Positions 4,752 through 63,186 are shown, counted from the stretch's first letter. The stretch is DNA of 64,000 nt from an uncultured Hormoscilla sp. (GCA_963921275.4 OZ001293.3:1760001-1824000); one strand, 5' to 3'. Made by a program: numbers and translations. The notes: generated by a model not told the origin, from the sequence alone.

Positions 4752-7700
4752 ATGAACATTCTCGAACTAGGTGACAACCAACTGCCTCCCTTAGACTATA
4801 GCAGTTTGCTGGAAAAGATATTGTCGGTGCTGGAAAAGGAGGAAAATCCGTTCAAGTTCTCGAAAGATGGCAAGAGATTGCAAATAGATGTCGATCGCAT
4901 CGCTTTTGCGGTGGCGACGGCACGAGTAGAGAATCCTTTGGCCCTCAGCAGCGGCGTCAAGATGGCTACTGTTAATTTTAGCTCAAAAGAGAATTTTGCC
5001 AATCGCATCCGCAAAATCCGCGATCGCCTGGGCCAACTGCTGCGGGATGCTGCCCCCAAGGGAAATGTAGAGGAGGCGATCGCGGATTTGTTGACTGATT
5101 TATCAACATTTAAGGGTTCCAGTCCTGCTTTAGGATTTACCTATCCCTTCTCAAGAGAGTATACAGGCTTGCAAAAACATCGCCTCAGTATCCAGTTTGA
5201 TCGCCGGGGAAGCGATTCCCTGCTAAAATTTCACAAGTTGACTATTACTGTGGGGGGGATAAATAGCTTTAGAGAACAGCTGCAAGCAAGTCTGTCCAAC
5301 TATATCCAGAGTCAATTTGCTGATGTGGAAGAGGATGATTTAGAGGATTTAAATGAGACGCTAACGGACTCGATCGAGGATAAAAAGTCTGACTTGTATG
5401 AACTCCGGCGCATCATGGATACAGAATCTCTGGGGAAGCTGAAACGAGAGGCAAAAATCCGTTATCTAGAATTTATCCTGGCAAATATCGACAGTAATGT
5501 GGAGGACAGGGTTTATTTGGAAAATTTGATTCGGCGACTGCGGTTGCTAGAAGATTACATCAACGATAGGGACAAAGATGACGAATATTACCGAGTCAGC
5601 TATGAGGGTACATTTGTTAATTTACGAGATATGTTTGCTCGCGCGGAAGTGTTTGATAGTCTGCCCATTATTCCCTTGATAGCTGGACACTTGGGAGAAA
5701 CTACGGATGAAGAACGGGGCGAAAGGCAGTTTACTTTCGGGATGAAACTCAAGTTTAACGGTGAGGTTCACACAGAAGAGAGATCCCCCACAGTGTTGGA
5801 TTATCATCTGAGTCAGATATCGCCTCAAAGCCCAAAACATCGGGAGGAACTGTCAGATACTAGCAGCAGCGAAATTTTCAAAAGAAGAGTATTGAAACTT
5901 GCCTTTCTCTATGATTTTGTATTATATTCTGAGTTGGATCCTTTAGCAGATGACTATTACCCCAACTTGGAATTAACGCACGATCCGGTGAAATATGTGA
6001 ATGGGAATTGTTTACCTATCTTGAAAAGTGATAGAGAAGATTTCAAGCGCGAACGAGTATTTCAAACTATCATCAAAAGATTTGAGAAGAAAAAAATCGG
6101 ATTGAAAATCAAAAAATTGCAAAAGCTGCTGAAAAACTTTATGAAACGCGATCGCATATTACCGAAGCATTCATTGCAGTTGCAAGTTGGGGTAAAAAAG
6201 GGTATACTAGAGCGCAGCCAAGATCGTATTCTAGAGGAGAGGAGGTTTTTCAAATCTGTTTGGGATGGAAAAAAAGCTCTCAAATATCTTGCGGTCGAAG
6301 AAGGCCATGTCGATAGCAGCTATCTCTGTCATCTGCCAGTGAAGATCGCCTTTGAGGATCTGCGGTATTTTAGGACGGACGATCTGCAAACCTTTAGCAT
6401 GGGTTATGATATAGAGGATCGGAAAACCCTGCCAGTTCTGCTCACTCCTTCTTTGCAGGAAAAACGCTGTAAAGACACCTACGATCAATCATTTATGAAT
6501 AAGAAGACTGAGGTCATAGAAGGCAATTTAATATTAGTCACATATGACCATCAGCGGTTACAAAGCCAGATTTTCCAGGAGATCAAATCTCACAAAGCCT
6601 TCTTGTATCGGGTAACATTCTCCCTGTTACTATATATATGCTTGTGGATGTTGCTAAATTTGGTTGAGTCGAGAATATTCGTCCCGATAATGCGGTGGCA
6701 TTTGCGATCTGACCAAGACAGTTCTCAAGGGGAAGAGTTGATGCGATCGCTCTCGAATATATTATCCCACTTACTCAGCGACAAGCATCAGTCTAACGCC
6801 CAAGGGATTAATATTGGAGATAAAAGCGGGGAAAGATTCAGAGTTAATAAGGCCCTCAGTTCTCTGTATTCTGTACTCCCGAAAGTCTTTCAATTCTCTG
6901 ACTATCAGCCCCAGTTGGAGAAACTAGCTATTATTGTAGTCAGTAGCAAGGAAAGTGATGCCAGTTGGCGGGGCGATCGCAAGTTGTCTACCTTGCTGGG
7001 GGAGGCGATCGGCATTGAGAAGTTAGGAAATAGCATTCGCCTGGAACCTCTGTACAGCTTTTGTGCTAACGACGAACACGCACAGATGTTTCAAAGACCG
7101 GTGGCGATCATGGATGCAGTGACCAAACTCTACCGTCAGGGTTTCCGACATTTCCTGTATATTGCCAAAACCCCCTATTCCAGTACCCTGAACCTGACAC
7201 AGAAGGACGAAGACGACTCGCTGTTTTTCATGTCCCGACAGGGGATGCAGGCATTAAAGGAAGGGAAAAGCGATATCAAAATCTACCCGGTATTCTATGA
7301 TAAATACTATGTGGTGCCATTGAAAAAGACAGAGATATCGATGTACGTGCAAGATACCAGGGAGTTGACCAACTTAGTGGCGGACTCCAGCAAGCAGGTG
7401 GTAGTCTTCTATAACCTCTACAATGGGATTAAAGTAGGAAATAAAAAAGACGATAAGGTTTACAACGGCGTGATTTCCTACGCTACCCTGCTGGGAGATT
7501 TTTATGAGGGGGTTCTGGATGACCAAGACATCAACATGGGTTTGATATATGATAGCAATGGCAATAGCCTGAAAACGGATATCTTGCAATATCTCACCCT
7601 GTTTCACTTTTCCCGCTACGAAGCTATGCCCAGAAGAGATCGTAATATTAGTCTGAAGCTGGATGGGGTCGAGCCGGGAATCGCTTCCCGACCCTCCCTT

Positions 7701-8676
7701 TCGGAACCGGACTTGCGATTTTCACCGCATCCGGCTACTGGGTACTAGGCCCTTTTCATAGGTAGACTTAATAGGAATTACTTCCGTTAGCCCTTGCCGC
7801 CTGTCTTTTCTTCCCTTTCCTGGTTTAGCGAGTGGTTGTTCTGATAACCGTTAGTATCACCATTTTCAAGTCAGTTTTACCAGTTATCCATACCTTATCC
7901 TCCACTTGCGTTTCGGATTAGTTCCGTGGCTTTTTAGGATTACTCATTCCAGCAGCTTCCTAGTATCACCGACCCACGTCAGCGCTGGCTACCCAGCATC
8001 ATCTACATTACTGTAGATGTTATCCCAGGAATTACCCCGGGCATTCGCTTCTTGGGCCATCCCTCCCCCCGTGGCTTGCGCTTAACATCTAACTTGTCCT
8101 GATGGACAGCACACGAGAGGTTACTTCGTTCCCTAACAACATTTCGCGATACCTTTAGGTCCACACTATACCCCGGGAGCTATTTGAGTACTATATTAGC
8201 CAGAGTCTAAAACTAATACTAGCTACCATTTCCTTTTTAGGCCAGCGCATATAGCCTTATTTCGCTGGTTCCTTATAACGAGGCTTGCACATGTTTGCCT
8301 GCTCTAACCTTGGATATCTTTCCTAGCGGCGTCACCGGCTTAGGCTGCCAGTTATCCTACATTTGAGTCCTCGCTTAGCACCACGATGATGTCGCTTCGT
8401 AGCACCGAGGACCGGTGTCACCCCCGTACCTGGGGGGAGGGGAATTTAACCCCCATGCGGTCAGAGTTCCCGGCTAATGAAACCGGGCTAGCGTTCCGTG
8501 TTTGACCACGTTAGGCTAGAACGAATCGCACAGACCCCTACAAGAATATAATTGGGGATGATGCGGTAGGGGCCCTGTCAATTGTTCCTCACAGCACCCA
8601 AAAAGTGGAATTTAACCTTCTCGCCTTCTTGACAGAAGCGAGGCGGGCCTTGAATGTACAAAAAGGAGGCCGATAG
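4752..8676 (+). pseudogene. Large hypothetical protein (~1017 aa when the insertion is removed) with a putative inactive MID-PIWI C-terminal half; interrupted at 7661-8531
   Basis: Joining 7660 to 8532 restores an open frame (..ISLKL|DPYKNIIGDDAVGALS..ALNVQKGGR*). The PIWI-like call rests on motif order seen by eye only. Confidence 0.6.
7661..8531 (-). mobile_element. ORF-less group II intron (871 nt), antisense to its host gene
   Basis: Minus-strand 5' end GTGCGATTCGTTC; domain V AGTAGCCGGATGCGGTGAAAATCGCAAGTCCGGTTC; DVI hairpin; near-identical to 32176-33045. Confidence 0.93.
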
Positions 8677-8902
8677 GTAGGATCAATAGGGCCACAGGAG
8701 CCAGAGCCTCTGGGCGACGTTATAGCGAATCTCGGCATTGATGTGATACAGCCGCCCGAACCCTAAAGAGTCCGGCTACTCGAACCAAGCCCGCCTGCGC
8801 GGGCTATTCGTGAGATTCATCCATCTCCGACAGCAGATAACACAAAGGATGAGAACTGCTATACCAGCGAATAGAAAATGAGGAGAAACTTAACTATCTA
8901 TT

Positions 8903-9331
8903 ATGGCTGAACTAACAATTAAAGTGCCAGATGAACTGGCTAAACGCTTACAACCTCTCGAAAATCGTCTGCCCGACTTGCTGAGTTGGCTAGTAGACAA
9001 TATTTACCCTAGAGAGTCTGCGCCGGCGCATCCCGAAGCATGCGCGCCTCAGCGCATGCGGAGAGGAGAGCAGTTACTTCTAGCAGTTGCTAGTCCGACT
9101 GACCTGCCGCCAGTTTATGGGGAAGTAATTGATTTTTTAATCAATGCTCCTAGTCCTCAAGAAATTGCCAGGTTCAAAGTTTCTTCAGCAGCGCAGGCGC
9201 GTTTGCGATCGCTCTTAGAGAAAAACAGAGAAGCAACTCTGAGCGAAACAGAAATAGCTGAACTATATCTGTACGAACAGCTAGATCGACTGATGATTTT
9301 ACTAAAGGCTCGCTCTTATAGTTGGAAATAA
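8903..9331 (+). CDS. Small antitoxin-like hypothetical protein with an in-frame repeat insert
   Basis: MAELTIKVPDELAKRL RHH-like start; LLEKNREATLSETE C-terminus. Confidence 0.55.
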   Translation: MAELTIKVPDELAKRLQPLENRLPDLLSWLVDNIYPRESAPAHPEACAPQRMRRGEQLLLAVASPTDLPPVYGEVIDFLINAPSPQEIARFKVSSAAQARLRSLLEKNREATLSETEIAELYLYEQLDRLMILLKARSYSWK

Positions 9332-9484
9332 AAATGAGTTTTCCTTTAATTCCTTATGCTATAATTAGTTGAAGATGTTATTAGTCGGTTTCAACCGAAT
9401 TCAGCTATTAGCAGGGGGTTTGAACCCCCTGCGGGCTAACAGCGAAGTGAACAGCAAAGTGAAGAGTTAAGGAGGTAGATAAGT

Positions 9485-12400
9485 ATGATCGCAGAAGATT
9501 TAGGACGCTTGTTCGAGGTGGGGTTCAATATTGGGATCCTCGCCTATATTCGCGAAAATAATCTGAAGAACAACTTCGATACATTATTTGAACGAGACCT
9601 GCAAGAGTTGCGCTTCCCCCAGATGCATCGGCGGATAGTCGATCGGGCAAAAATGGTGGATGCGTCCCATCGCCAGACGATATGCAAATGGAGTTTATTT
9701 TTCCTGCAAAAAGGGTTTCTTTGCGGTCTCAACTTCTTCCGGGAATACCTGGAAGCTGCGAAATGGGAATTAAAAAAGCTGGAGATTCTCTATTTCCAGT
9801 GCAATTTTCGCGGTGAAAACAGTCTGGGTACTTATCCCCAAAGTGAGGAAGAAGGATTTCACTCGCTTTTGTCTCAGTTGGGGAATGTCAAGGTGGATAT
9901 TGGTCGCTACCAGCAAAAAGGAGAATTTCTCAAAGCTGATACCCTGATGCTACTGCGTTGCCGCAAAAAGTTCCGCATCCTCTCGGTAGATTTGTCGGTG
10001 TTCTCGGTTAAGTCCGCAGAAGATATTCAGGATCTGGATAATGTGGAGATTTTACGGCGATACCTGCTGCGGGAGATCAAATATTTGCGATCGAAAAGCG
10101 TTTTCTCTCAACTGAGTATCGATACGGAAGACCTGGACTTCAAGTTTTCCCCGGACTTGGTCCGATATTTCACCGCTTTCAAAACTAAGGATAAAGAAAG
10201 TGCTAAATTGATTCAGGCGGGGAGTTATGCTTATAGCTTCTATCAGTTTTTGCTGTCTGCTAAGATTCTGCAAGCAACGGACCCCCTCACTTTGAACGTG
10301 TTCGGTTACAGCGATCGGGGAGTCAGCGCCATGTCCTTGCATCCCGATCAAATCGATATTTTACAAACCTGCGCCCACATCTACAAGCAGGAGAACAAGA
10401 AACAGGAGATCGACGACGCGCGGGATATTGTTTGGAGAAAGATTTCTCGGAATGCGACCAAGAGTTTTATCAATGGCCGGAAATTCATGCAGGACTTGTC
10501 TTCGGCATCAGGGAACGGAGTGACTCACATCACTCACCAGGAAAAGATTACCGATTTTTTCAATTCCATTGCCAACGTTCCGCCAGAGTTAATGGCCCAA
10601 GTGGGACTAACGGGAACGATGAATTTGCGAGATGCCCACGCTGCTTCGATCGGAAAAGCTTTGACTGCTAAGGAAAACTATCTGTTTTTAACGGGAAATC
10701 CCGGTATTGGCAAGACCACGGCCATTGTGGAATTTCTCAAGCAGCATATGGATGAAGGATTTTTGTTCTTATATATCAGTCCCCGCATCCAAGTTAACCG
10801 AGATATCATCGAGAAGTTCAAGCAGGGAGACCGGTTGTGTGACGATCGCCTGTTTTGCGTCAACAGCAATTCTGACATCATCAAGTCTAACATGGGACAT
10901 TGCACGGTCCAATACCAGACTAATTTAATTCAGGGAGAATTTACCGAAAAAGGAGTCCATTTTTTAGATAGCGATATGATTGGTCGGGAAAAATACAAGC
11001 TGCGACTCAAGCAGACAATGGAGGACTTAATTCAAGATGGCGGTCAGAGAACTCGGGGAGTCTTATCTAGTGTTTGTGATGCGATCGGGACAATGGTGGA
11101 ACGTGGCCTTTCCAATAACATTATCGCCACAGTTTCCGTACAGTCTTTTAAGAAAACCAGAAATGGCGATACTCTGAAACATTTCAATAAAATCTTCAGG
11201 AGTGTCTATAACGAGAGAGAAGGATCAGTTAATCCCGCCAAGATGCAAGCAATATCTCAGCGGATAAAGCACATGTTCGTTATGATTGATGAAATTACCG
11301 GAGACGACAGTGGGGTCGAGTTCTTCAGCGGCATTAGTCAACTGGCGGGAGACTATGAGTTAATGGATGGTACACATGGGTTTAATACTAAGATTATAGT
11401 TGCCGATGCCTCCATCGTCAACTCAGAGGTGATCCGTCAGCATATGGGCGATCGGGATGTAGCACCGGACAAAATCTTTTTCCGACCGGCATCAGGTCCA
11501 GGTTCCCCCCTCTCCGTGGAACCTTTTGATTATGGGGCGATCGCCCGCAATTTTGATTAATGCCAACTCCTATCCGGCCCAAAGTTTGGATATTACATAT
11601 AAAGTCTTCATCGAGTCCAGTAAATTTAAGGACTCGGAATTATATGACAAATCTGATGTGGTCGATCGGGTGCAAACAGAGATTATCGCAGACTTGAATG
11701 AGTTGCTGAATAGACCGAACGCGGGACAGATAATTGTCTACATCCAGGACAAGCAGCGGTTAAAGAACCTGACAGAGAAACTGAAAGAGGATCGCGGCCA
11801 ATTCGAGCAATTTGTAGATTACCTAGAAATTCACTCGAACATTTCCGAGTCCTATAAACAGGAACTGCAAAGGCACAAGAATGACGTGAAAGTAATCTTC
11901 ATGACTTCCTCAGCGAGTCGAGGACTATCCTTTCCCAAGACCAAGCATATCCTGGTAGACATTCCTCGGTTTCAAATTGAAAGGAACCTAATGGAAGTCA
12001 TCCAGGTAATTTATCGCGGTCGGGGAGAATACATTGAAAATGAGGAGAGGAAAACCCTGGATGGAGAAGATAAATACCTGACCTTTTACCTTTACGAACA
12101 AGCAATTTACTACGGGGAAGAACCCGAAAAAGAATTACGGGAGAGCAAATTAAGTTTAGCGAACATCCTGCTGATCTTGAAAACAGCAGTGATGACCCGG
12201 ATCGCAGGTGCAGGACAGATCGGCAAAAAACATTTTACGATCATCCCGATCGGGGGGAAGTCAGTATTTGCAGCGGGGGACACATTTTCCGGGAGTATGG
12301 CGGCGCTAATAGGGGAATTAAAGAGAGAACATATCCGCCGCCGCACTGATAAACTTTTGAATGAAGTGCATGGGAGTTTAAGGCAACTGCTGGCCCGGGC

Positions 12401-14658: not shown

Positions 14659-14689
14659 CTATTACAACTCTTTACCTATATACTTCTTG

Positions 14690-15396: not shown

Positions 15397-17698
15397 GTTA
15401 GCTAGATAGGCGCATTACTGCACGTACCCGCCTCCAGAACCGGACTTGAAACTTTCGCCTCATCCGGCTCCTCGTTCTGGATGGTGCTTCCACCTCGGCT
15501 ATGGTGGTCTTGATGACAGTACCTATGTACCATCGCCAGGTTACTGCGCTTGTTATTCCGGTGGTTCCCGTCGATGTGGTGTAGTTCCAGGTCTTGTCCC
15601 GTGAAAATTACCTCTCCACAGAGCGAGCAACATCCCTTCTGAAAACCTACAAGCTTTTGCCTCAGATCTTCATGGGAGGGGTCATGTTTGCCCCTTTTGC
15701 TCCAGTAAACCCAGTCTCCATCGAACGGGGATTTTTCCCCTCTTACTTTCTCGTGTACTCGACTAGAAAAGTCGGTGTACTTGGGGAGAGTCACCAGATT
15801 GCCATTTTGGTCGTATCCGCCGTACCTCCAACCTTGTTCCGTCTTATGCCAATAACGCTTCCATTGGGTATCGAGTGATTGCTTACCACAGTCCCGTTTA
15901 GTTAGTGATAGCAGCCGATAGTATAGGGTTTCATCCAGTGAATTGAATGCTTCATAGCTACCATTTCCCCATCGGAAGTATTGCGCCCATTCCCGCATTA
16001 TTGGCTTGAGTCTGGATACAATGCTCAAGGTTCTCTTATCCTTGACCATCCTAGAGGCAATTGTTAACTCATGCTTGAGCTTGGTCTTTTGCTTTTTGAC
16101 GGCATCTTCACTCGGACCGGTTATCAGTCGGTGTCCCAGATGTTTTCCGTCCGGTTTTCTGGCCCCTCTATGTTTACCTCTCTCCTTTTGGATGAAGTTG
16201 TATCCCAGAAAGTCAAACCCCGGTTCTTCTCCATCTGTTTGGACTTTGGTATTACATATGCGGGTTTTCTCCTCGGAGAGCTTGAGACCAATAGCTTCTA
16301 GGAATTGCTCGACCACCGTCTTGGCCTGTTGGACTTTCTCCAGTTCGTCATGAATCACGACAAAGCCGTCTGCATACTGGATTAACACAATCCCAGCTGT
16401 TTTGCTTCCGTCTTTGTTGCTTTTCGACTGCGGCTGGATGCGGTTTACTTCTGTTTCCAGGCCCTGTAGGGCAATGTTTGCTAGCAGCGGACCTATGACT
16501 CCCGATTCTGGGGTGTCTTTGTCCCTTTGCGGAAAGACATTGCCTTTCATTACCCCCGCCTTCAGCCAGGCTTTTATCTGTCTCCTCATGATGCTGAACG
16601 TATTCAGCTTATTCAGGAGTTGTTCGTGGTCGAGCCGGTCAAAACCAGCGATTTCGGCGTCCAGGACATATTTAGGTTTGTACCTCAGTCGGATTCTAAT
16701 CCCTTCTATAGCATCTATAGCGCTCTTCCCGGGTCTGAATCCATAGCTGTTAGGTTCAAAGAAGGCTTCCCATTCTGGTTCTAGGGCAATTTTGGCTAGC
16801 GCCTGTTTGGCCCTGTCCTCAATTGTGGGGATGCCTAACGGTAGCCCTTTCTCGGAATCTGGTTTGGGTATGCAGACTCTTTTTAATGGAGAGGCTTTAC
16901 CGTCTATCTCTAGCCTTTCTGCTAGGGCTAACCTTTCAGAGGGCTTCAGGCAAATAATTCCATCCACTCCCAGAGTTTTGGCTCCCGTATTGTCCTGGGT
17001 GACCATTCTGGTGGCCAGCAGTTTGGCGCTTCTAGACCTGATGACTAACTTTTGCAGGTTTTTCACCCTGTCGAAGTCGCCCTCTTTAGCCGCTTTGTAG
17101 ATTCGCTTTTGGATGCGGAAGACTTCTGTCCGAACTTTCGTCCAGTCTAGATACCCCCAGGTTACCTTTGCGGTTTTAACCTCTGACATCTTTCTGGGCT
17201 GTCTCTACTCTTCCAGACCGACGGCCTTTCAGCGTATCCCCAGAGTTACCCGAGGCATTTGCTTGGTGACCGTATCCTTCACTGTCCTACCGCAGGTTTG
17301 GAACTCTGCCCGTTTCCGGTTGAGGTACTTCAGCTTCCCTAGCTTCATCGTTCTCCATTGGCTGTGGGTTTAGGTCTCCAGTTTGCGCCGGTGGATGAGG
17401 TGCCTCCGCTCGGTACCATATCCTCACGGTCTTACCACACGTCCCTGTTTTGGACTCCGGGGTATCAACCCTGTTTTCCCCGTTAACATTTGACGACGCT
17501 TCTCGATACTGGATTCACTGTCCGTTAACCATGCCCACTTGCGCATGTATCTTGATTCTGGGTGGGTTCCCGTCCTCTTGTTTCTTTTCCCTGCTTCGCT
17601 CCCTGGTTTACCATCCCAGGATGCGGGGATGCGCTGTCCCTCCGGCACTGAGAGGAGTAGGACTCTAACCTACATGGAGTACGACTATCTAGTCGCAC
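15397..17698 (-). mobile_element. Group II intron (2302 nt) inserted in the tmRNA tag frame
   Basis: Starts GTGCGAC; DV GAGCCGGATGAGGCGAAAGTTTCAAGTCCGGTTCTG; ends ...CTAGCTAAC; encodes an RT/maturase. Confidence 0.95.
15402..17189 (-). CDS. ltrA: Group II intron-encoded protein (RVT_N, degenerate RT, X/maturase, HNH)
   Basis: PLGIPTIEDRAKQAL, FEPNSYGFRPGKS, YADG in place of YADD, C-terminal CSLC..HHIDG..N..H..CH. Confidence 0.92.
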   Translation of the reverse strand: MSEVKTAKVTWGYLDWTKVRTEVFRIQKRIYKAAKEGDFDRVKNLQKLVIRSRSAKLLATRMVTQDNTGAKTLGVDGIICLKPSERLALAERLEIDGKASPLKRVCIPKPDSEKGLPLGIPTIEDRAKQALAKIALEPEWEAFFEPNSYGFRPGKSAIDAIEGIRIRLRYKPKYVLDAEIAGFDRLDHEQLLNKLNTFSIMRRQIKAWLKAGVMKGNVFPQRDKDTPESGVIGPLLANIALQGLETEVNRIQPQSKSNKDGSKTAGIVLIQYADGFVVIHDELEKVQQAKTVVEQFLEAIGLKLSEEKTRICNTKVQTDGEEPGFDFLGYNFIQKERGKHRGARKPDGKHLGHRLITGPSEDAVKKQKTKLKHELTIASRMVKDKRTLSIVSRLKPIMREWAQYFRWGNGSYEAFNSLDETLYYRLLSLTKRDCGKQSLDTQWKRYWHKTEQGWRYGGYDQNGNLVTLPKYTDFSSRVHEKVRGEKSPFDGDWVYWSKRGKHDPSHEDLRQKLVGFQKGCCSLCGEVIFTGQDLELHHIDGNHRNNKRSNLAMVHRYCHQDHHSRGGSTIQNEEPDEAKVSSPVLEAGTCSNAPI

Positions 17699-30100: not shown

Positions 30101-33100
30101 TCGTCCAATACATCATAGCGAGTAGCTGGATTTGGCATATAATCTGGCCAGATGATCAACCCTACGTCAATGTCGTTAATTTCGTTAATCGACTCAGGCA
30201 AATATAATCCCGTGCCCGTGACTATTCGCAAACCGCCAACATTATCCAGCACATTAGCTGGTGCTTTTGCTGCCGACAGTTCCCAGAAATTATCTCGATC
30301 TGTTAATCTTCCGTCTGGTAACTCTTGTACCTGAGACTTCCGGATCCGGTCTTTATCCGAGTTCGAACCATCCGGTTCAACCATTTTTTCGTTCCTCCGC
30401 CATCTCTGACTACCTGCTCGTAGCTCGCCGCGTCAACAAACTCGTTACTATCCGGGTCATATATCTTCCTTGGCAGGTTATTTCCCACCAGAACCCGATC
30501 TCCCACTCGTTCTTCTCTGTCTTGCAGCCGATCGGGGTCTGTCGCTGGCGGTCGATCTAGTTTTTGTGTCAAATTTGTATATGATGTAGTATTGTCGTTC
30601 CGTTCAAAAGGATACATCCAATAATACGGCGGGCGCAGGGGGTTTTGCCCCGTGCCATCATCCCCTTCCGTATACGCTGCAAAAAAACTATTCGCCTCTG
30701 TTTCATTCATGATGGTGATTGCGTCATCCGCACTGGTAGCAGGTAACGACCCCCCGCTAGTTGACAATGCCGACTCTCCATTGGGCACTTCCGCAAACGG
30801 CACCTGACGAGTGCGATCTCTAAAATAGTTTTCCAACTCTTCCTTGCGCACCTTGTAGCCATCCATCCCCGGGTTTTCTTTCAGCCTTTCTGCCACCGGA
30901 TTTCAAACTTCCTCGGGGTCTTTCTCCGTATCTGTTCTCTCGATCTTGTCCACCGAGTCGTTTCCTCTCCAGAGAGCAGCATTTACCATATAGTCGATCC
31001 GCTCGTTGAAAGCGAAGGTATTGTAGGACAGGTCCGCACCTCCTTCTTTGTCTACTGTCTTATTCGCTGCACCAAAGTCCTGCTCTGTTGCCGATGGATC
31101 CACTAGTCCAAATAGGTCTATATCTGCATTATTTGCATCAGTACTAGTATTGACTGCACCTGCGCCTATATTTCCGCCCACAATCACCTTACTCAGTCCC
31201 TCCTCGTAATAGCAAGAATCTCGACTGCTGACCAAAAACAGGCGCACGTCAGAATTGCTATTAACGTTCCCTATCAGCAAGTTACTGTTGGTCATCACCC
31301 CTCCATTCATATTTAACCCCGTATCTGAGAAGATAGCTAGGTCATCTCTGTAGACCAACGGGTTGTTGTTCAGGGGGATTCTACTCCGGTCTTGCTGATA
31401 CTCTAGAGCCGAAAAGCCCTTTCCGCCAGAGAACTTTTCATAATAGTTGTTATCGTCGTCGTTCAAGTCCGTTATATCTGTTATTGGCACGTTGGCCGCA
31501 TATACAAATATCGCCTTTTTAATCTGATTCCCCGATCTATACCAATCCGAGTTTCCTACAAATCTAGCGCTCTTCGCGACCGAACTCTCGCATCTTCTAC
31601 CACCCAGCTTAGAGTCATCACTTGGTAGCGTTCTCGCTTCCAGGGGGTTTCTTCGTCTTGTAAATTCGCCCTCGCCCTCCTCGCCTCTGAGCGGGCTGCG
31701 GAATAAGATCCCGTAGAGAGTAAATGTATCGAACTTTCCGTTATTATCTGTATCTACCGGAAACTTCCAGGCCGTGGTCACCGTTTCTCGATCTTCCAGA
31801 GCGCTTTGATCCGTATCTGCCTCTCCGATACCTTCTTTACCATCAACATCAAAAACCAGCTTCAGGGGCGTCTCATCTCCGAAGATATACCTTTTATTTT
31901 CCATTGCTTTGAGCAGATCTTCATCCGTGGGAGTTCCCCGTGGCAGGGTGGAGTCCTTGAACAACTCCTCTATTTTTGCCCTGGCCCTGTCTAGCGCTGG
32001 TGCCGCCGCATTCAATGTCGCCTCATTCACTCTAAAATTATGTGCGTTCTTAGAGCGGTCAAAAGAGCGTAGCACCATTGCCGTCGTCAGTAGCACCACC
32101 ACCAATGACACCATTGTCATTGTCGGCAATACAAAGCCTCTCGTTGCCTGGCCCCGCCTACCTCTCCTTTTCAGTGGATGGGGTCGAGCCGGGAATCGCT
32201 TCCCGACCCTCCCTTGAGGAACCGGACTTGCGATTTTCACCGCATCCGGCTACTGGGTACTAGGCCCTTTTCATAGGTAGACTTAATAGGAATTACTTCC
32301 GTTAGCCCTTGCCGCCTGTCTTTTCTTCCTTTCCTGGTTTAGCAAGTGGTTGTTCTGATAACCGTTAGTATCACCATTTTCAAGTCAGTTTTACCAGTTA
32401 TCCATACCTTATCCTCCACTTGCGTTTCGGATTAGTTCCGTGGCTTTTTAGGATTACTCATTCCAGCAGCTTCCTAGTATCACCGACCCACGTCAGCGCT
32501 GGCTACCCAGCATCATCTACATTACTGTAGATGTTATCCCAGGAATTACCCCGGGCATTCGCTTCTTGGGCCATCCCTCCCCCCGTGGCTTGCGCTTAAC
32601 ATCTAACTTGTCCTGATGGACAGCACACGAGAGGTTACTTCGTTCCCTAACAACATTTCGCGATACCTTTAGGTCCACACTATACCCCGGGAGCTATTTG
32701 AGTACTATATTAGCCAGAGTCTAAAACTAATACTAGCTACCATTTCCTTTTTAGGCCAGCGCATATAGCCTTATTTCGCTGGTTCCTTATAACGAGGCTT
32801 GCACATGTTTGCCTGCTCTAACCTTGGATATCTTTCCTAGCGGCGTCACCGGCTTAGGCTGCCAGTTATCCTACATTTGAGTCCTCGCTTAGCACCACGA
32901 TGATGTCGCTTCGTAGCACCGAGGACCGGTGTCACCCCCGTACCTGGGGGGAGGGGAATTTAACCCCTATGCGGTCAGAGTTCCCGGCTAATGAAACCGG
33001 GCTAGCGTTCCGTGTTTGACCACGTTAGGCTAGAACGAATCGCACAGACTCCGCCGCAGGTTACCCGCCAACTTTTTGGTCATTTTTTTAGTCAACCTAC

Positions 33101-39445: not shown

Positions 39446-41634
<2,189 letters not shown>

Positions 41635-48990: not shown

Positions 48991-49270
48991 GTGCGATTCG
49001 TTCTGGCGTAACTGGGCACCACGTCCAGGATAGTCAGGTGGGGTTTTACCCACAACTCAGGCGTTATGAGGATTAGATTTCCGTGCGATTCGTTCCGACG
49101 TAACTGAGTAATCAGGATAGTCGGGTGGGGTCCAAACCCACAACTCAGACGTTATGGGGGTCAAATTCCCCCCCCATGTACAGGGGTGACACCGGTGCTC
49201 TCCTCTCCGCGTGCGCTGAAGCGCGTACGCTCCGGGATGCGCTTCGGTGCTGTGGAGCATCATCGATGCA
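48991..49270 (+). mobile_element. Two nested/tandem group II intron 5' fragments (starts at 48991 and 49083)
   Basis: Two GTGCGATTCGTTC starts with homologous domain I sequence; no DV or DVI follows. Confidence 0.8.
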
Positions 49271-53950: not shown

Positions 53951-54229
53951 GTAGTGAGGACTAAAGTCCTCCGTCGCCGTTTGTAGTGAGGACTAAAGTC
54001 CTCCGTCGCCAACGCGCTGTTGAAGACTAAAGTCTTCACTACGAACCTGTTGAAGACTAAAGTCTTCACTACAAACCTGTTGAAGACTAAAGTCTTCACT
54101 ACAAACCTGTTGAAGACTAAAGTCTTCACTACAAACCTGTTGAAGACTAAAGTCTTCACTACAAACCTGTTGAAGACTAAAGTCTTCACTACAAACCTGT
54201 TGAAGACTAAAGTCTTCACTACAAACCTG
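53951..54229. repeat. REP array: two GTAG palindromes, then 7 tandem 30-bp inverted units
   Basis: (CTGTTGAAGACTAAAGTCTTCACTACAAAC)x7 with no variable spacers. Confidence 0.9.
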
Positions 54230-54890
54230 GCCCGATCGCGTGCAACTCTGCTTCCAGGCTTTGAGCGCGTCGTTCTGCGGCCTGTAGCAGTTCTTCTGGA
54301 GTCAGAAATCTTTTTCCTTGTTCGTCATACCAGTAAATCCATTCCCGAGTTATTCCTTGATAGGTTCCCATTTCGCTACCAATGCCCAAACCAATTTCTG
54401 GCAACCAAACAGGATTTGTCAACTGTCGCTGATACCTGCCATCCACCAAGCGATAAACTTCCAGAGGTGGTTTGCCGCGACGCATCGTATTATAAATTAC
54501 GTAGTACAGCACTTCCAATTCAGTATAGATGTCCTTCCTAAAGAAATATTCTCCTCCACCTTCACGGCAAATCACCTCTAGGGTCAAAATCGGCGGGATC
54601 TGCTTTTCTTCCCACATGACATAACTCAAGCGGAGTTCTTCTTCCAAAACTCGATCAACTCCCAAACTCAGAAACCCATCTGGGACGATCGCGGTTTCAT
54701 CGGGGTGATAATAAATCCCCAATGCAGCACCAAAAAACCAATCCCACCGTTCTCCCCAGATTATCGCCAGAGTCGCCTCCAGCAAACTGGGCATCAAATG
54801 TTGTAGTTGATTTTGATTATTCGCCGCCTGTTTGTCAGTGTCCCGTAACTCTTCAGCATCAGGTACATTGCGATCGGAATACTCGAACAT
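54219..54890 (-). CDS. Uma2 family endonuclease-like protein
   Basis: IVPDGFLSLGV, PILTLEVI, LYYVIYN. Confidence 0.85.
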   Translation of the reverse strand: MFEYSDRNVPDAEELRDTDKQAANNQNQLQHLMPSLLEATLAIIWGERWDWFFGAALGIYYHPDETAIVPDGFLSLGVDRVLEEELRLSYVMWEEKQIPPILTLEVICREGGGEYFFRKDIYTELEVLYYVIYNTMRRGKPPLEVYRLVDGRYQRQLTNPVWLPEIGLGIGSEMGTYQGITREWIYWYDEQGKRFLTPEELLQAAERRAQSLEAELHAIGPGL

Positions 54891-57082: not shown

Positions 57083-57168
57083 TACTATTTTTATTTAAAG
57101 ATCAATTATTCCAAAAACTGGACGATCCCAATTCGCGGGCGATCGCCTGCGAATTGGGATCGGTAATT

Positions 57169-57957
57169 TTAATCGATGTCGTCCGGGTTAATTCCCATTT
57201 CGAGTAAACGCTGGACTAATTGTTCAGCCCGTTGGCGTTCATTTTCAGCCCGTTGGCATTCATTTTCAGCCCGTGTTCCGTTTGGGCCTGTTTTTCCAGG
57301 GTTTTGATTTTGGTTTGTTCTTCTTTAATTAATTCCTCCACTAACGGCGGATCGAGCAGTTCTTTTACTGATAAAAATAGCTGCTCAAACTGACCGGAAA
57401 CAATTGACGTATCTTCTGGAAAATCATCAAAACTATATCCTTCTTCCTTGCGAAGATTAGCACAGACTCGAACAACTTTATTTTTCGGGTCTACTATCCA
57501 ATATTCGGGAATTTTCTTCGTATTTATTGCGTTTAATCACATAATATTCCTGGCGATTGCTGCTGACAATTTCTACCAGCATAATTGGCTTTTCATCAAA
57601 ATCAAAAACCCCAGCCCCTGAGCGATCGCTGATTTGCTCCCAAAGACTTTGATGGCAAACGATCGCATCAGGAATTCGGGATGAATTTTCCTCGGTTCTA
57701 ACTCCTACAGTGGTTTTGGCCACCAAAGATAAATTTTGGGCAGCAAAGTAGCGCTGTAACTTGTAGACTAAAAATTCACATATTTTTGTGTGTTCTAGAG
57801 TTGGTGTGGACATCGGTATTAGTTTACCCCTGACTAATTCATAGATAACATCCGGTTCTCCTTCATAGGAGAGATATTCTTGGAAGGTTAACAGATGTTC
57901 CTTTTCTTGAGGTTCATTGATGGCCACCTCCGTTGCTGGGGCGACAGCTTGTGTCAT
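57169..57957 (-). pseudogene. Uma2 family duplicate, frameshifted near 57515
   Basis: Near-identical 5' half and upstream DNA to 58194-59078. Confidence 0.85.
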
Positions 57958-58193
57958 ATTCGACCTCCCTTGCGCTCGCGTTCATTGACTATCTTATCTT
58001 AGCTTATTGGACCTCTTGACCGTCAGCACAGTTGGGACGACCAGGTACAGACCTCATTTGCTGCAACACCCTCAACTACCTACAGTTGCGAGGGGTAGTG
58101 CTCCTGATGTAATGATAGCAAATCCACTAACCGTTGTTTCAGTGGGATATAATCATTACTTGTGGAGCGCTACCCTTTGGGAGGAAGGTAATT

Positions 58194-59078
58194 TTAATCG
58201 ATGTCGTCCGGGTTTACTCCCATTTTTAGTAACCGCTGGACTAATTGTTCAGCCCGTTGGCGTTCATTTTCAGCCCGTTGGCGTTCATTTTCAGCCCGTT
58301 GGCGTTCATTTTCAGCCCGTTGGCGTTCATTTTCAGCCCGTTGGCGTTCATTTTCAGCCCGTTGGTGTTCGGTGTCCGCCCGTTGGCGTTCTGAAAGAGC
58401 TTGTTCTTTCAGGGTTTTGATTGTGCTTTGTTCTTCTTTAATTAATTTATCCACCAAGGGCGGTGCGAGCAGTTCTTTCACAGATAAAATTAGCTGCTCA
58501 AACTGACGGGAAACAATTGACTGTTCTGAGGTAAAATCGGCAAGAAAACGATATCCTTCTTCATTGCTAGGATTAGCACAGACCCGAACGAGTTTATTTT
58601 TCGGGTCTACTATCCAATACTCGGCAATTCCAGCCGATTCGTATTCGTTGCGCTTAATCACATAATCTTCCCGGCGATTGCTGCTGACAATTTCCACCAC
58701 CAGAATCGGCTTTTCATCAAAATCAAAAACTCCTGCCCCTGGACGATCGCTTATTTGCTCCCAAAGACTTTGATGGCAAACGATCGCATCAGGAATTCGG
58801 GATGAATTTTCCTCGGTTCTAACTCCTACAGTGGTTTTGGCCACCAAAGATAAATTTTGGGCAGCAAAGTAGCGCTGTAACTTGTAGACTAAAAATTCAC
58901 ATATTTTTGTGTGTTCTAGAGTTGGTGCGGACATCGGTATTAGTTGACCCCTGACTAATTCATAGATAACATCCGGTTCTCCTTCATAGAAGAGATATTC
59001 TTGGAAGGTTAACAGATGTTCCTTTTCTTGAGGTTCATTGATGGCCACCTCCGTTGCTGGGGCGACAGCTTGTGTCAT
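58194..59078 (-). CDS. Uma2 family protein with C-terminal (AENERQR)n coiled-coil repeats
   Basis: YELVRG, RIPDAIV, VVEIVS, GIAEYWIVDP. Confidence 0.88.
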   Translation of the reverse strand: MTQAVAPATEVAINEPQEKEHLLTFQEYLFYEGEPDVIYELVRGQLIPMSAPTLEHTKICEFLVYKLQRYFAAQNLSLVAKTTVGVRTEENSSRIPDAIVCHQSLWEQISDRPGAGVFDFDEKPILVVEIVSSNRREDYVIKRNEYESAGIAEYWIVDPKNKLVRVCANPSNEEGYRFLADFTSEQSIVSRQFEQLILSVKELLAPPLVDKLIKEEQSTIKTLKEQALSERQRADTEHQRAENERQRAENERQRAENERQRAENERQRAENERQRAEQLVQRLLKMGVNPDDID

Positions 59079-60622
59079 ATTCGACCTCCCTTGCGCTCGC
59101 GTTCATTGACTATTATATCTTATCTTAGCTTATTGGACATTTTTCCAGGAAGCCCCAAATACTGTAAACTTCGATCGATGATTTAGGATTGCTAGATGAG
59201 CGGTATTGTCGGTATTCTCAACGGCGACGGTCAACCCATTGACCCCGCCCTGTTACAGCAAATGATGGAGTTGATGGCATTTCGCGGCCCCGATGGCTGG
59301 GATACCTGGAATGACGGTTATGTCGGTTTCGGTCACGCCCTCTTGCGGACTACCTGGGAATCAGCAAAAGAACGGCAACCTCACAGTCTCGATGGGAAAG
59401 TTTGGATTACTGGGGATATCCGCCTGGACTGGCGCGAAGATTTGATTGACCAATTGCGTGCGTCCCGACGGAATCTAGAGAAGGACGTGACGGATGTTGA
59501 CCTGGTTTTGCACGCCTACTAGCTTTGGAAAGATGCTTGTTTGGAACGACTGAGTGGAGATTTTGCCTTTGCTATTTGGGATGGCCCCCAGCAGCGATTG
59601 TTCTGCGCCCGGGACCAGTTTGGGGTCGTACCTTTTTTCTATGCAACAATCGGAAAAAGCCTGATTTTTAGCAATACTCTCAACTGTCTGCGCCTGCACC
59701 CAGAGGTATCGGATAGACTTAATGAAGGGGCGATCGCCGATTTCCTGCTATTTAGCATGAATATGGATATGGCCACGACCACCTTCTTTGCCGATATCCA
59801 AAAGTTGCCCCCCGCCCACACCCTGATTTGGTCAGAGGGCGAGGTGCGCGTCCGGCGTTACTGGCAGTTGCCCGAAGCAGTAGAATACCTGCGTTACCAG
59901 CGCCCAGAAGAATATGTCGAGCAGTTTCGGGAGTTGTTCGAGCGCTCAGTTGCTTCCAGACTGCGAACCAACAGTGCGGGCACTATTTAAGCGGGGGAAT
60001 GGACTCCACCAGTATCGCTGCCACTGCCTATAAATTAATGACAGCAACGGGTTCCCCTGTTGATTTTCGGGCCTACGCGAGTTTCTATAAACAAGTCATT
60101 GCTGACGAGGAAGGGGACTACGCCGCACTGGTCGCTGAGGCGGCGGGTTTTCCTATTGAGTACCTAGTTGTGGAAGACTATTGGCAGCAGCCACCGATCG
60201 AACAACCGGAGTACATCGAATCAGAACCGCTGCTGATTCGCAACCAAAGCGTTGAGATGGAATTGAATCGGCGAGTCGCTGGGCACAGTCGGGTGCTGCT
60301 AGCTGGGTTTGGTGGCGATCCGGCACTTTATCCAGCGCCGTATTCCCAGAATAAGTCGCTTATGCTCAATCCTTTGGGTTACATTCGCTCTCTTCGTGCC
60401 AGGGTGAGGTTACGTACCCGGTTGCGCCAGTGGCTGCGCATAGAGCAGCAAGGGCGGTTCGGCTCCGCTCACCGCGAGCAACAAAAGATTTATTTTCCTG
60501 ACTGGTTTAACCAGATTTCGCAGAACGAGCGAACTTGAAAGCGCGACTGCAAGAAATATTGACTGCGCCACCGCAAAAAGACCGCTACGGAATGGCGACT
60601 GCTCCCTTGTGGTCCAATATTA

Positions 60623-61634
60623 ACTCAAGTTGCGACCTATAAAAATTGGATACAAAAAGCTATGATAAAGAGAATTATTTTCAACTCTAATCCCTTAGAT
60701 GTAACAGCATGAATTGACTTGGGAAACAAATTGGTGATTCGACTAAAACAGGTTTCAACTTGTTTTCTTGTTACTTTTTGTATATATTCAAAACAAGAAT
60801 ATTCTTTTCTTTTTGAGTTCTTTTTTCGCAAAGGTTTTAACATTATACTTGACGACTCTTTTAGTAAATCCTCTAATTGATAATCATTATAAGCTTTATC
60901 TCCATAAACTATTGAATTTGATGGTAAGTCAAAGCCAAAAGATTGCAAAACTTTAAAATCATTATAACTACCAGGATCTAGATAAAATTCTATTGGCTTT
61001 CCATTTTTGTTTACCAACATATGAACTCTTAATCCATAAAAATAACGTTTTTTACTGGCAATATACCCTCGATATTCTTCCTTGTTATAAATTTGGCATC
61101 TATCAATCCTAATATTATCACATACTGGCACCGGGAAACTATCAAGAATATATTCTTGACCCGGATTGAGCTCTTTAAATGTTTGAGCTATAACTTGGAA
61201 GAAAAACATCCAAATTGGTTCCTCAATATTGTGTAATCGACGATTGAACCTACTTTTACTTAACAGATTTTTTATATACTTGTGTTGGACCATAAATTGA
61301 CAAGAGCGATCGTGATGTCCTCCGAAAAAATATGCAGCAACTAATCCGACTGTCATCACTTCGGCATTGTTCATTTTTACTTGTGGATCTTCTTTTATAT
61401 TTAACGCTTTTAGTAGCTCGTCACAAAGAACAAAAATTGTTGTAATCATATCTTCCATCATCTACATCCCCCAGCAATTAACTATTATTTTAGTACATTA
61501 TAACCTATAAACAGCCAACCCGCCGTCTAGCACAAAAAAAATATAATTTTGTATCAAAAGCTACGAAATATCCCAAATATCTGTAAAGTATAAGTGGGTA
61601 ATTCATATTTTTTTTAATAGGTCGCAACTTAGGT
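60623..61634 (-). mobile_element. IS982 family insertion sequence
   Basis: Terminal IRs ACTCAAGTTGCGACCTAT / ATAGGTCGCAACTTAGGT; 7-bp target duplication AATATTA; low GC. Confidence 0.92.
60637..61461 (-). CDS. IS982 DDE transposase
   Basis: SRFNRR, LDSFPVPVC, GYIASKKRYFYGLRVH, GDKAY, RKQVETCFS. Confidence 0.92.
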   Translation of the reverse strand: MMEDMITTIFVLCDELLKALNIKEDPQVKMNNAEVMTVGLVAAYFFGGHHDRSCQFMVQHKYIKNLLSKSRFNRRLHNIEEPIWMFFFQVIAQTFKELNPGQEYILDSFPVPVCDNIRIDRCQIYNKEEYRGYIASKKRYFYGLRVHMLVNKNGKPIEFYLDPGSYNDFKVLQSFGFDLPSNSIVYGDKAYNDYQLEDLLKESSSIMLKPLRKKNSKRKEYSCFEYIQKVTRKQVETCFSRITNLFPKSIHAVTSKGLELKIILFIIAFCIQFL

Positions 61635-62102
61635 AATATTATATTTGCTGGGTCCGATCCGGGCTTCAGTGGCTTTCCTCTTAAAGTTCGCTTTCCGTTT
61701 TTTGATTTGCGTTTGGTGTTATACTTATTGTCAGTGCCGCCAGAACCTTGGTTTGAAAGTAAATTCTTGCTCCGGGAAGCCATGAAAGGCACATTGCCGG
61801 AGTCGGTGCGACGGCGACCCAAAACACCGCTCAGGGGCCGTCCCCGTTATGAATTTGCCAGGCAGCGAGGGGTCGTGCCATGGATGGTAGAACTGGCAAC
61901 TACACCCGCGCTGAGTTATTATGTCAACAGCGATCGCCTGTTGCAAAAAATCAACGCAGTAGAGGAACTCACCCCCGCGAGCTACGATCGAGCGTCATTT
62001 GCTCTGACACTGGCTTACTGGCTGCGCCACCAACGCCGCCCGAAGACCAAGACCAGACCGGTTTGATCGCAAATTTGAAATCAAAAGTAAGGAGAATAAC
62101 CC

Positions 62103-63186
62103 ATGTCTAGAGTAACTAACAACCAAGAGCGTCCATCTAACCAAAAAGATTATCACAGCCCTAAATTGCGGAGTTTCGGCAAGGTTAGCGATCTGACCTT
62201 AACGAATAATCCTGGAGGTGGTTGTGCGATTCGTTCCGGCGTAAACCAGTAATGGTGAAAGTCGGGTCTGGTTCCATTAGCCAGATAACTCTGGTCATCA
62301 TGGGGGTTAAATTCCCCTTCCCCAGGTGCGGGGGTGACACCGGTCCTTAGTGCTGCGGAGCCACATCGCCGTGGTGTGGAGCAAGGACTTAAATGAAGGA
62401 TAAGGTCTCAGCCCAGGGACCGACGCCGCATGGCTGCGCCACGCTGCGCGATCGGAAAGAGGTTCATGGTTAGAACAAGCAAATCCCTGTAAGCATCGTC
62501 ACCACGAACAAGCGAAAAGAGGCTGACACGCTTGGCACAAAATGTGCATGTAGTCCGCGTATCAGTGCTAATCAATCACTGATATCGTACCCGAAACGAC
62601 TGCCGGTGTAGAGGTGAGACCTAAAAGCCTCGTGAAATGATACCAGGGAACGAAGTAACCCCGTGGTGCTGTCCTACCGACGGACAAGTTAGATGTCAAG
62701 CGCAAGCCCACGTGGGAGGGATGTCCTAAGAAGCCAAAGCCTGGGGTAATGCCTAGGATATGCAGACGTAGGACGGATATGGTAAGAAGTTCTGGGAGAT
62801 AGTAGCCCTTAAATGTACTAAACCAGGAGCAATCCTAGGGAGTAATGGTGGATTAAATCCTAACCGGGTAAAAATTCAGAGCCCCAAATATAAGGGACAT
62901 GTAAGTAAAGAGCGGATTTAGTGGTTTACTGGTTTACCCCCGCAAACCTTCCGGAGTTAGGTAGCTAACGGCTCCACGACTGACCATAAGGGGCAAAATT
63001 TCATAGGACAAGGGACAATGGGAGTAATCCAAAAGTTACCTGCCTATGACAAGGGCTTATCAACCAGTAGCCGTGTGCGGTTCCAGTCGCTCTTCAGGTT
63101 TCGCTCTTGGAGGGTTGGTACGTGAGTACCAGTTCGACCCCGACCCCTCTGATGATGGTTTGGGGATCGCGATTTACAATTCCTAA
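62103..63186 (+). CDS. Lasso peptide precursor in two exons (62103-62223 and 63146-63186; 53 aa)
   Basis: AAGGAG RBS; spliced MSRVTNNQERPSNQKDYHSPKLRSFGKVSDLTLTNNPGGG|SSDDGLGIAIYNS*; leader motif YxxPxLxxxGxxxxxT; directly after the cyclase. Confidence 0.8.
62224..63145 (+). mobile_element. ORF-less group II intron (922 nt) with a degenerate domain V
   Basis: GTGCGATTCGTTC start, domain I homologous to the eno intron, AGTAGCCGTGTGCGG DV remnant, ends TTCGACCCCGACC. Confidence 0.88.

Follow-up and report, generated by a model that had tools for sequence, protein, structure and literature searches.

More than 300 group II introns without an open reading frame share one scaffold and carry diversified target-recognition loops in an uncultured Hormoscilla

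A 64-kb stretch of the chromosome of an uncultured Hormoscilla sp. (G000:C1:1760001-1824000, all of which is referred to below as the window) holds four group II introns of 870-922 nt that are devoid of an open reading frame (ORF), together with one 2.3-kb ORF-containing intron and two 5' intron fragments. All four are genuine group II introns that lack a gene of their own. Their family has 301 full-length ORF-less copies in the same chromosome; three separate exon-binding sites (EBS1, EBS2 and EBS3) of its members covary with the sequences flanking each insertion, and the largest lineages are near-identical throughout. Our preferred reading, to which we give a probability of roughly 0.85, is that these are non-autonomous introns of the IIB type that have spread by retrohoming or ectopic retrotransposition while their EBS loops were rewritten, and that they are served in trans.

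The window introns and their target recognition

Introns A (7661-8531, minus strand, 871 nt) and B (32176-33045, minus strand, 870 nt) carry the EBS1 hexamer AGACTC, by which their family is named here, and are 99.4% identical. Intron C (40238-41136, plus strand, 899 nt) belongs to the GTGGCC family, with three copies in the genome, and intron D (62224-63145, plus strand, 922 nt) to the AATCAA family, whose three copies are about 99% identical. In a four-way alignment they form one scaffold with a mean column identity of 75% and a common tail in domain 6 (the six domains are abbreviated D1-D6). All four begin with GTGCG, in agreement with the GUGYG conserved at the 5' end of group II introns. 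Within the window, the 12-mer GTGCGATTCGTT has exactly six occurrences, at the 5' ends of A-D and of two adjoining 5' fragments of the same scaffold (48991-49081 and 49083-49266, plus strand, covering positions 1-92 and 1-146 of its profile hidden Markov model, HMM). With the fifth intron (15397-17698, minus strand, 2302 nt), this agrees with the five complete introns plus fragments counted in an earlier note made from this DNA. That note had also described the four as ORF-less elements on one scaffold, and therefore non-autonomous; in line with this, A-D have no stop-free stretch above 94 amino acids (none above 58 on the sense strand of A and B), and tblastn of a resident intron-encoded protein (IEP) against the 33 family representatives at E<=1 detects no ORF remnant.

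Rfam models of domains V/VI match at 7663-7739 and 32178-32254 (minus strand), 41058-41136 (plus strand) and 15397-15472 (minus strand); A, B and C reach the gathering score of RF00029 with 44-46 bits against a cut-off of 40 and with 13 of 13 D5 pairs. An RNAalifold consensus of 33 representatives lays out D1 at positions 7-407, D2 at 412-467, a poorly resolved D3 at about 476-559, D4 at 562-792, D5 at 794-829 and D6 at 834-866. Its helices are mostly 87-100% canonical with compensatory pairs, including 8 of the 10 pairs in the D4 closing stem. D6 is predicted to have 13 pairs, 6 of them with compensatory changes, and the unpaired G and A on its 3' strand, 9-10 nt from the 3' end, would hold the branch-point A. 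In A, D4, D5 and D6 fall at 7740-7970, 7703-7738 and 7666-7698; D5 and D6 lie at 32218-32253 and 32181-32213 in B, and at 41059-41094 and 41099-41131 in C. Intron D has a non-canonical D5 (63067-63102; 10 of 13 pairs, loop UCCA) and an intact D6 (63108-63140). As an independent placement of EBS1, the Rfam models of D1-D4 gave no window match at E<=1; intron C searched alone gave a weak match to RF01999 (E 0.053, intron positions 79-195). Intron C additionally contains a near-perfect 62-nt palindrome (40729-40790), lacking in A, B and D, which a microRNA model in Rfam scores on both strands and which looks like a hairpin insertion in D3/D4.

There are at least 33 distinct EBS1 hexamers in the family, this being the number among the 294 copies with clean context in a MAFFT alignment of all 301. 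The hexamer occupies positions 5-10 (324-329 in the numbering of intron A, which is used for all EBS positions) of a 13-nt loop on a 6-9 bp stem. On the RNAalifold consensus this hypervariable loop would be that of Id3, as the earlier note had presumed, since the hexamer sits in the loop of a covarying hairpin with nine predicted pairs, eight of them supported by compensatory changes. When EBS1 was compared with exon positions -6 to -1 in 247 unique combinations of EBS1 and flank, all six positions paired in 101, five in 113, four in 25 and three or fewer in the remaining 8. The per-class mean is 5.21 of 6, against 2.78 (standard deviation 0.19, maximum 3.41) when the classes are permuted, and none of 2000 permutations reached the observed value. 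Control comparisons stayed at the same low level, with 2.5-2.8 for flank windows that were slid along and 2.2-2.8 for a loop register shifted by 1-3 nt.

For the second element, a blind scan compared each D1 column with each upstream flank offset. This located EBS2 at positions 257-261, in the junction loop 5' of the helix 264-269/285-290, where it matches exon positions -13 to -9 at 3.98 of 5 against a background of 1.95 (standard deviation 0.40). EBS3 is position 364, in the internal loop between helices 248-253/357-362 and 239-243/366-370 on the same arm as EBS2, and is complementary to exon position +1 in 31 of the 33 classes (U:A in 22/22, G:C in 7/7 and A:T in 2/3). Thus, the reprogramming that had been proposed for EBS1 holds, but it extends to EBS2 and EBS3, which had been overlooked. 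Pairing of EBS3 with its intron-binding site (IBS3) is typical of IIB and IIC introns and not of IIA introns; the three-part target recognition that includes EBS3 is of the IIB type. As the CL-class IEP encoded in D4 is absent from A-D, the class of the scaffold is assigned from RNA features only.

The individual loops of A-D were found at the positions claimed for them earlier, and all four EBS1 pairings were reproduced. In A, EBS2 (8271-8275), EBS1 (8203-8208, in a hairpin at 8193-8219) and EBS3 (8168), all on the minus strand, face a 5' exon flank at 8532-8546 (minus strand) whose IBS1 GGGTCT (8537-8532) pairs at 6/6 with one G-U, while the A at 7660 serves as IBS3 (A:U) and TCTTG, which resembles IBS2, is displaced from the family register by one position. 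B (EBS2 32785-32789, EBS1 32717-32722, EBS3 32682, minus strand) pairs at 6/6 with IBS1 GAGTCT (33051-33046) and A:U with IBS3. Both have UAAGG as EBS2, and the logo of their family reads AaCcTTA..GaGTCT|A. In C, on the plus strand, EBS2 CATAG (40492-40496), EBS1 GTGGCC (40557-40562) and EBS3 G (40599) pair with IBS2 CTATG (40225-40229) at 5/5, with IBS1 GGCAAC (40232-40237) at 5/6 and with the C at 41137 (IBS3, C:G). Similarly, EBS2 CCACG (62502-62506), EBS1 AATCAA (62570-62575) and EBS3 G (62611) of D, also on the plus strand, pair with the IBS2-like CCTGG (62211-62215) at 4/5, with IBS1 GTGGTT (62218-62223) at 5/6 including one G-U, and C:G at IBS3. A and B share one EBS set; hence, the earlier description of the loops as individually retargeted stands in that EBS1 matches the flank in 33 classes, but the unit of retargeting is the family and not the single copy.

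These data bear directly on the alternative that the introns spread at the DNA level, by segmental duplication, recombination or a transposase acting as on a miniature inverted-repeat transposable element (MITE), with the matches between loop and flank being incidental. Such processes have left some trace: 17 upstream 25-nt flanks recur, in 57 of the 301 copies, indicating that some copies multiplied with or inside other repeats, and D5 loop types and a 22-nt insertion are distributed as a mosaic, as expected of recombination between copies. However, the recurring flanks are mostly sites within other mobile introns and thus instances of twintron homing, and there remain 247 unique flanks with register-specific complementarity to three separate intron elements. 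The introns have neither terminal inverted repeats nor target-site duplications, and their junctions are exact at GTGCGA and at the D6 tail. Furthermore, the flanks of A and B are unrelated outside the IBS positions, so that their near-identity does not come from a segmental duplication; the same comparison, which the earlier note had proposed for identical copies, found no shared flanking DNA beyond those positions. Taken together, we regard spread at the DNA level as very improbable.

Copy number and tempo of the spread

The catalogue was compiled by iterative BLAST as full-length ORF-less elements of 760-994 nt. All 301 copies lie on the 6.88-Mb contig C1 and 299 of them start with GTGCGA; intron A as the sole query recovers 138 full-length copies at 95% identity or more. 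Profile HMMs for the 5', middle and 3' segments give 492, 416 and 442 matches, again all on this contig, and stack-pairing of complete ends gives 367 pairs. Among these, 326 measure 700-1000 nt and add up to 288,478 bases, and 17 are 1.7-2.0 kb long, 11 of the latter enclosing a second set of intron ends, which points to nesting. To these may be added the ORF-type introns of about 2.39 kb, with 81 5' ends and 79 3' ends on the chromosome. In the whole genome, RF00029 has 867 first-look candidates, nearly all of the 150 that were scored being above the cut-off, and the maturase domain PF08388 has 75 matches. The ORF-less copies by themselves account for at least 4% of the chromosome, which carries about one intron per 15-17 kb. 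The density of five per 64 kb that had been called unusual is therefore extraordinary in comparison with other bacteria, but ordinary for this genome. No group II intron segment has a match on the small contigs. With regard to a possible replication-strand bias, plus and minus counts per 0.5 Mb are patternless, and the GC skew is weak. One of the small contigs (C3; 31,420 bases) has 17.6% G+C, as opposed to 47.4% in the chromosome and 42-49% in the other small contigs, and may be a foreign replicon or a contaminant.

The recent movement that the likeness of A and B had suggested is evident at the level of whole families. The AGACTC family (871 nt) has 139 copies at 119 distinct sites with a median pairwise identity of 99.77%, 1373 of the 7021 pairs being identical, and the TGCACT family (835 nt, about 70 copies) occupies 60 sites with a median identity of 99.76%. 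Between families, EBS positions differ by 0.44-0.79 per site while the scaffolds differ by 1.7-7.7%; for instance, identity between the ATTTGC and CATCTA scaffolds is 97.7%, but 5 of the 6 EBS1 and 3 of the 5 EBS2 positions are different. This saturation of the EBS on near-constant scaffolds suggests that retargeting is far faster than background change, or that loops are exchanged between copies. The mosaic of D5 loop types and of the 22-nt insertion across the scaffold tree likewise points to recombination between copies. The D5 loop type (GAAA or UCCA) does not visibly covary with the hairpin at positions 172-206 that bears CCUAAG.

The introns have also repeatedly entered one another. Members of the TGCACG class sit in D1 of ORF-type introns, and the class with GGGAAT in its EBS1 loop inserts after ..AAATTCCC, a motif conserved in the scaffold's own D1. 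AGACTC introns have invaded AGACTC introns at five loci, at D4 position 768 (e.g. L004, G000:C1:1325800-1327700), and are joined head to tail at three tandem junctions; arrays of two and of three such introns without a spacer occur at G000:C1:5447656-5450268 and 824934-826675. Since the 5' exon still has its IBS1 and IBS2, and the first G of the resident intron can form a wobble pair with the U of EBS3, we infer that the tandems arose by re-invasion of an occupied site.

A further possibility is that the family is a fossil, i.e. that the bursts were real but are past, and that inert insertions are now tolerated by a polyploid cyanobacterium. Many copies are indeed antisense to ORFs or outside them: when 267 unique sites were placed against frames of at least 150 codons, 85 were in sense, 47 in antisense and 135 outside, compared with 618, 645 and 737 of 2000 random positions. 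Fossilization would also fit the damaged D5 of some lineages, the lack of a YADD motif in the window IEP and the stops in 7 of 22 near-full-length IEP matches. However, long-ORF insertions are rarer than random (132/267 versus 1263/2000) and favour the sense orientation (85:47), which suggests selection, and the presumably essential gene eno is split in sense with its frame kept. The identity statistics of the AGACTC family, the perfect 13-bp D5 in 135 of 139 AGACTC and 72 of 72 TGCACT copies, and the 14 intact IEPs with YADD all argue the same way. Moreover, the best copy in any congener is only 92% identical, which indicates that the burst is later than speciation. Hence, we consider an entirely inert family unlikely.

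Candidate drivers, domain 5 variants and known systems

If the preferred reading of mobile, trans-served introns is correct, each copy would have arisen by reverse splicing of an intron RNA, within a ribonucleoprotein, into DNA followed by reverse transcription, with the RNA choosing its site through EBS2 at -13 to -9, EBS1 at -6 to -1 and EBS3 at +1. Mutation or exchange of the EBS loops would create new lineages with fresh sets of sites, and two of these, AGACTC and TGCACT, would then have multiplied in a burst, reaching about 140 and about 70 copies that are near-identical. Splicing, which presumably continues, and mobilisation of the ORF-less introns would depend on reverse transcriptases (RT)/maturases acting in trans. 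The same chromosome has roughly 80 ORF-type introns, and their IEPs, T.el4h-like proteins with an endonuclease domain, are the likely drivers. An ORF-type intron (e.g. L001, 89-2478) opens with the same 12 nt as the ORF-less scaffold. Its IEP (L001, 694-2472; 592 aa), the main one of this genome, combines RVT_N, RVT_1, GIIM and HNH domains and has as its best PDB match the T.el4h maturase/RT (6ME0_C, E 3.9e-114, residues 6-557). A tblastn search retrieves 22 near-full-length copies of it, 7 with stops and 15 uninterrupted, and 14 of the latter have the YADD motif; the active RT elsewhere that the earlier note had called for thus has candidates. Trans-mobilisation by the resident IEPs would best explain the ORF-less copies.

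The window has an IEP of its own in the fifth intron (15402-17189, minus strand; 594 aa, RVT_N+RVT_1+GIIM+HNH). It represents a separate lineage with about 41% amino-acid identity to the main IEP family and, to judge by its YADG in place of YADD, is probably a maturase only. The frames of both this and the main IEP run through domains V and VI almost to the last bases of the intron. Two sets of candidates for an ORF-bearing parent of the scaffold were rejected: the paired ends above 1 kb are nested ORF-less copies or unrelated inserts, and the regions upstream of 70 IEP N-termini gave weak scaffold matches or an adjoining ORF-less copy.

A typical group II D5 is a hairpin of 34 nt with an AGC triad, a bulge of 2 nt and a GNRA loop. 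The canonical, perfect 13-bp D5 is present in 250 of the 301 copies. Variant V2 (33 copies, window intron D among them) has ..GCUCUUCAGGUU as its D5 3' strand and a helix of 10/13 pairs; variant V3 (17 copies) has AGCCCCAGCGG as its 5' strand, with C.C mismatches at base pairs 5 and 6. Neither D5 sequence yields a D5 hairpin when folded. Both variants fall within one major clade of the scaffold tree, where they are found with many EBS classes, and both retain the AGC triad, the position of the 2-nt bulge, the upper helix and D6. The TGCCTC family, which has V2, occupies 14 distinct sites with an EBS1 match of 5-6/6; its median identity is 99.78%, with no difference at all in 16 of 91 pairs. 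V2/V3 copies in long ORFs are in sense 17 times as against 7 in antisense. On this sequence evidence, V2/V3 introns have moved with a non-canonical D5 and probably splice with it, the defect being either tolerated with protein help or compensated by a D5 supplied in trans.

D5 is known to act in trans in vitro, and a clade that is dead by itself and draws a canonical D5 or the ribozyme core from its siblings would accommodate an unfoldable D5 in a lineage as mobile and target-matched as TGCCTC, as well as the occupation of the whole clade by V2/V3 across many EBS classes and their sense bias. However, it would be simpler if a 2x2 internal loop at base pairs 5-6 were tolerated with maturase help, or if a shifted register with one bulged G restored two pairs, as inspection of the sequence suggests. 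The retained catalytic features listed above point in this direction, and a free-standing D5 gene was not identified. We therefore doubt that D5 is provided in trans; were it so, the clade would represent a natural step from self-splicing toward a U6-like core that acts in trans and is shared. Spliceosomal introns are held to descend from group II introns, of which bacteria normally keep few copies. It is tempting, although we consider it unlikely, to see here a living bacterial analogue of the intron invasion proposed for early eukaryotes, with a clade that has lost a canonical D5, still moves and relies on sibling RNA.

Several observations weigh against mobile introns served in trans by the resident IEPs. 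As to target recognition, 8 of the 247 unique sites pair with EBS1 at three or fewer positions, and B has a poor IBS2 match. As to structure, intron D has no RF00029 match even at E<=1, and in the 50 of 301 copies with V2 or V3 the D5 is unable to form the canonical helix. As to the host, intron A lies antisense to its host ORF, whose last 48 codons it cuts off, and could not be removed from that mRNA by splicing; with 47 of 267 sites antisense in long ORFs, A included, many copies are plain gene disruptions. Finally, the ORF-less scaffold resembles the ORF-type RNA only in D5 and in about 125 nt of D1, where identity is 70-80%; none of the 41 paired ends outside 700-1000 nt is an ORF-containing intron with the same scaffold; and the compatibility of IEP and RNA is an assumption. 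If the resident IEPs nonetheless act on the scaffold, a handful of protein drivers would serve more than 300 ORF-less introns with at least 33 specificities.

This kind of system is already known from Thermosynechococcus elongatus, for which Mohr, Ghanem and Lambowitz (2010; PMC2882425) report 28 introns, 17 of them ORF-less, that form 6 EBS families, and establish experimentally the mechanism by which ORF-less copies are served in trans, along with EBS divergence and twintrons. As related there, the TeI3/TeI4 introns are likewise of the cyanobacterial CL/IIB1 type, with ORF-less copies outnumbering ORF-containing ones, families set apart by diverged EBS, insertion at EBS-matched sites and twintrons formed by homing into introns (PMC2882425). 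Their driver IEPs are given as RT-X-D-En (PMC2882425), those of the present genome being T.el4h-like and RT-X-HNH. Distinctive here are the size of the system, its number of specificities, the absence of any recognisable parent with an ORF and the mobility of lineages whose D5 is degenerate. The complete ORF-less copies number 301-326 and fall into at least 33 EBS1 classes, and there are about 80 ORF-type introns besides; in scale, this is about 15 times the system of T. elongatus. The ORF-less introns of the latter are portrayed as products of recent deletions, in which ORF remnants are visible and break-points are shared (PMC2882425), unlike the remnant-free copies described here. The non-canonical D5 of some mobile lineages is a further difference, and the present organism gives no sign of thermophily.

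Among prokaryotes in general, the survey of Miura et al. (2022; PMC8919778) gives a maximum of 101 group II introns per genome; the present chromosome is several-fold above this, as counted by a different pipeline. It resembles Arthrospira platensis and other Phormidiaceae as treated in that survey, which are also filamentous cyanobacteria with expansions of CL-type and ORF-less introns and with copy numbers that vary strongly between close relatives (PMC8919778). Many group II introns, among them a twintron, are recorded for Trichodesmium erythraeum (Pfreundt and Hess, 2015; PMC4649490); Miura et al. put their number at about two dozen per chromosome (PMC8919778). Unlike in that organism, nesting is frequent here, with 11 nested pairs at 1.7-2.0 kb and 5 self-invasions of the intron A type. 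Our literature search, which covered mostly open-access texts without supplementary tables, found no bacterial genome with more than about 100 group II introns.

Within the genus, the scaffold is present in 4 of 4 other genomes, with 8-198 first-look candidates compared with 465 here. Of nine genomes from the same family, eight had no scaffold match and one had only weak, D5-sized matches; 11 of 17 from the same order had none. The remaining genomes of the family and order gave D5-sized matches only, apart from one 31-nt match in D1.

Engineered targetrons (Ll.LtrB, TeI3c/4c) are retargeted through EBS1, EBS2 and EBS3/delta on a constant scaffold. In the present case such reprogramming is natural, has happened at least 33 times and has its outcomes recorded in a single genome, with more than 240 of them scored. 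One free-living cyanobacterium with about 490 intron ends, a split and presumably essential glycolytic gene and a split gene for transfer-messenger RNA (tmRNA) may accordingly help to define the limits on intron proliferation, the pace at which EBS loops evolve in comparison with their scaffold, and whether catalytic domains can degenerate when many siblings share one cell. IBS logos, wobble use and re-invasion of occupied sites could likewise reveal in vivo target rules and mismatch tolerance, and the natural table of EBS and IBS is a data set for better rules of targetron design.

Host genes, the split tmRNA gene and neighbouring repeats

The ORF struck by intron A (4752-7748, plus strand, opposite to the intron) encodes 998 aa as present and ends inside the intron; with the intron taken out it has 1026 codons, the junction falling after codon 978 and the remainder at 8532-8675. 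The earlier note had called its product PIWI-like. A language-model lead in ESM-Atlas does point to pPIWI_RE clusters (score 0.95, rank 6), but it is a lead only, and the product has no match in Pfam, NCBIfam or PDB sequences. The next ORF (9485-11557) matches an nSTAND3 NTPase, and the locus may be a disrupted defence locus. Two sub-threshold matches to CRISPR-DR28 (32-34 bits against a cut-off of 35) at 4136-4159 and 8783-8806 flank the struck ORF, and a short 21-nt tandem array lies at 4266-4390.

The identification of the hosts of B and C as hpsA and eno is corroborated. Intron B lies in sense in hpsA, after codon 66 of a joined frame of 490 codons, the 3' exon (30903-32175, minus strand) matching the HpsA equivalog NF038301 at E 8e-155. 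Intron C is in sense between eno exons 1 (39446-40237) and 2 (41137-41634) on the plus strand, whose joined frame of 429 codons carries Enolase_N and Enolase_C across both sides. Four sequencing runs contain this locus; one of them, with a small share (0.08), is an RNA library, and the other three are of unspecified kind. In a contig from the RNA library, which belongs to a relative with about 93% identity, the two parts of eno meet exactly at 40237|41137; this fixes the boundaries and fits a spliced mRNA and an intron-less gene alike. In the three other runs, the contigs break inside the intron and no empty site was seen. Summed word depth in the intron bins exceeds that in the flanks by up to several hundred-fold, which fits a high copy number, depth not being the same as copy number.

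Intron D splits a short plus-strand ORF (62103-62223, about 40 codons, resuming at 63146 for about 13 codons to about 63186; the ends 62103 and ~63186 were counted by hand from the translation), which we take from its leader motif to be lasso-peptide precursor-like. Beside it lies a 119-aa, C-terminal fragment of an Asn-synthase-like (lasso-cyclase-like) protein (61707-62066, plus strand), directly adjoined by a DDE transposase gene (60637-61461, minus strand). The putative lasso cluster struck by intron D already looks broken.

The fifth intron parts the tmRNA gene ssrA, whose exons lie at 17817-17699 and 15396-15130 (minus strand), inside the reading frame of the tag, after ..ANNIVP-F. When 15397-17698 is removed in silico, ARAGORN calls a 386-nt tmRNA with the tag ANNIVPFARKAAAVA*, and this call is lost if the 3' boundary is moved by 1-2 nt. 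An uninterrupted ssrA with the same tag is found in 4 of 4 congeners, and a junction-spanning query matched only its exon part in 14 of 14 relatives. The tmRNA database of 2025, as summarised by its authors, has standard genes, permuted genes and a group I intron in the T-psi-C loop only (PMC11915505), and our search, of the same literature scope as above, met with no report of a tmRNA gene interrupted by a group II intron.

Two other sets of repeats occur in the window. Seven tandem 30-nt units at 53987-54259 are 99% identical, each with an inverted repeat (GAAGACTAAAGTCTTC). At 57162-59078 there are two paralogous segments of about 1.1 kb that are 81-95% identical and contain runs of a 21-nt repeat (up to 7 units) within minus-strand ORFs.

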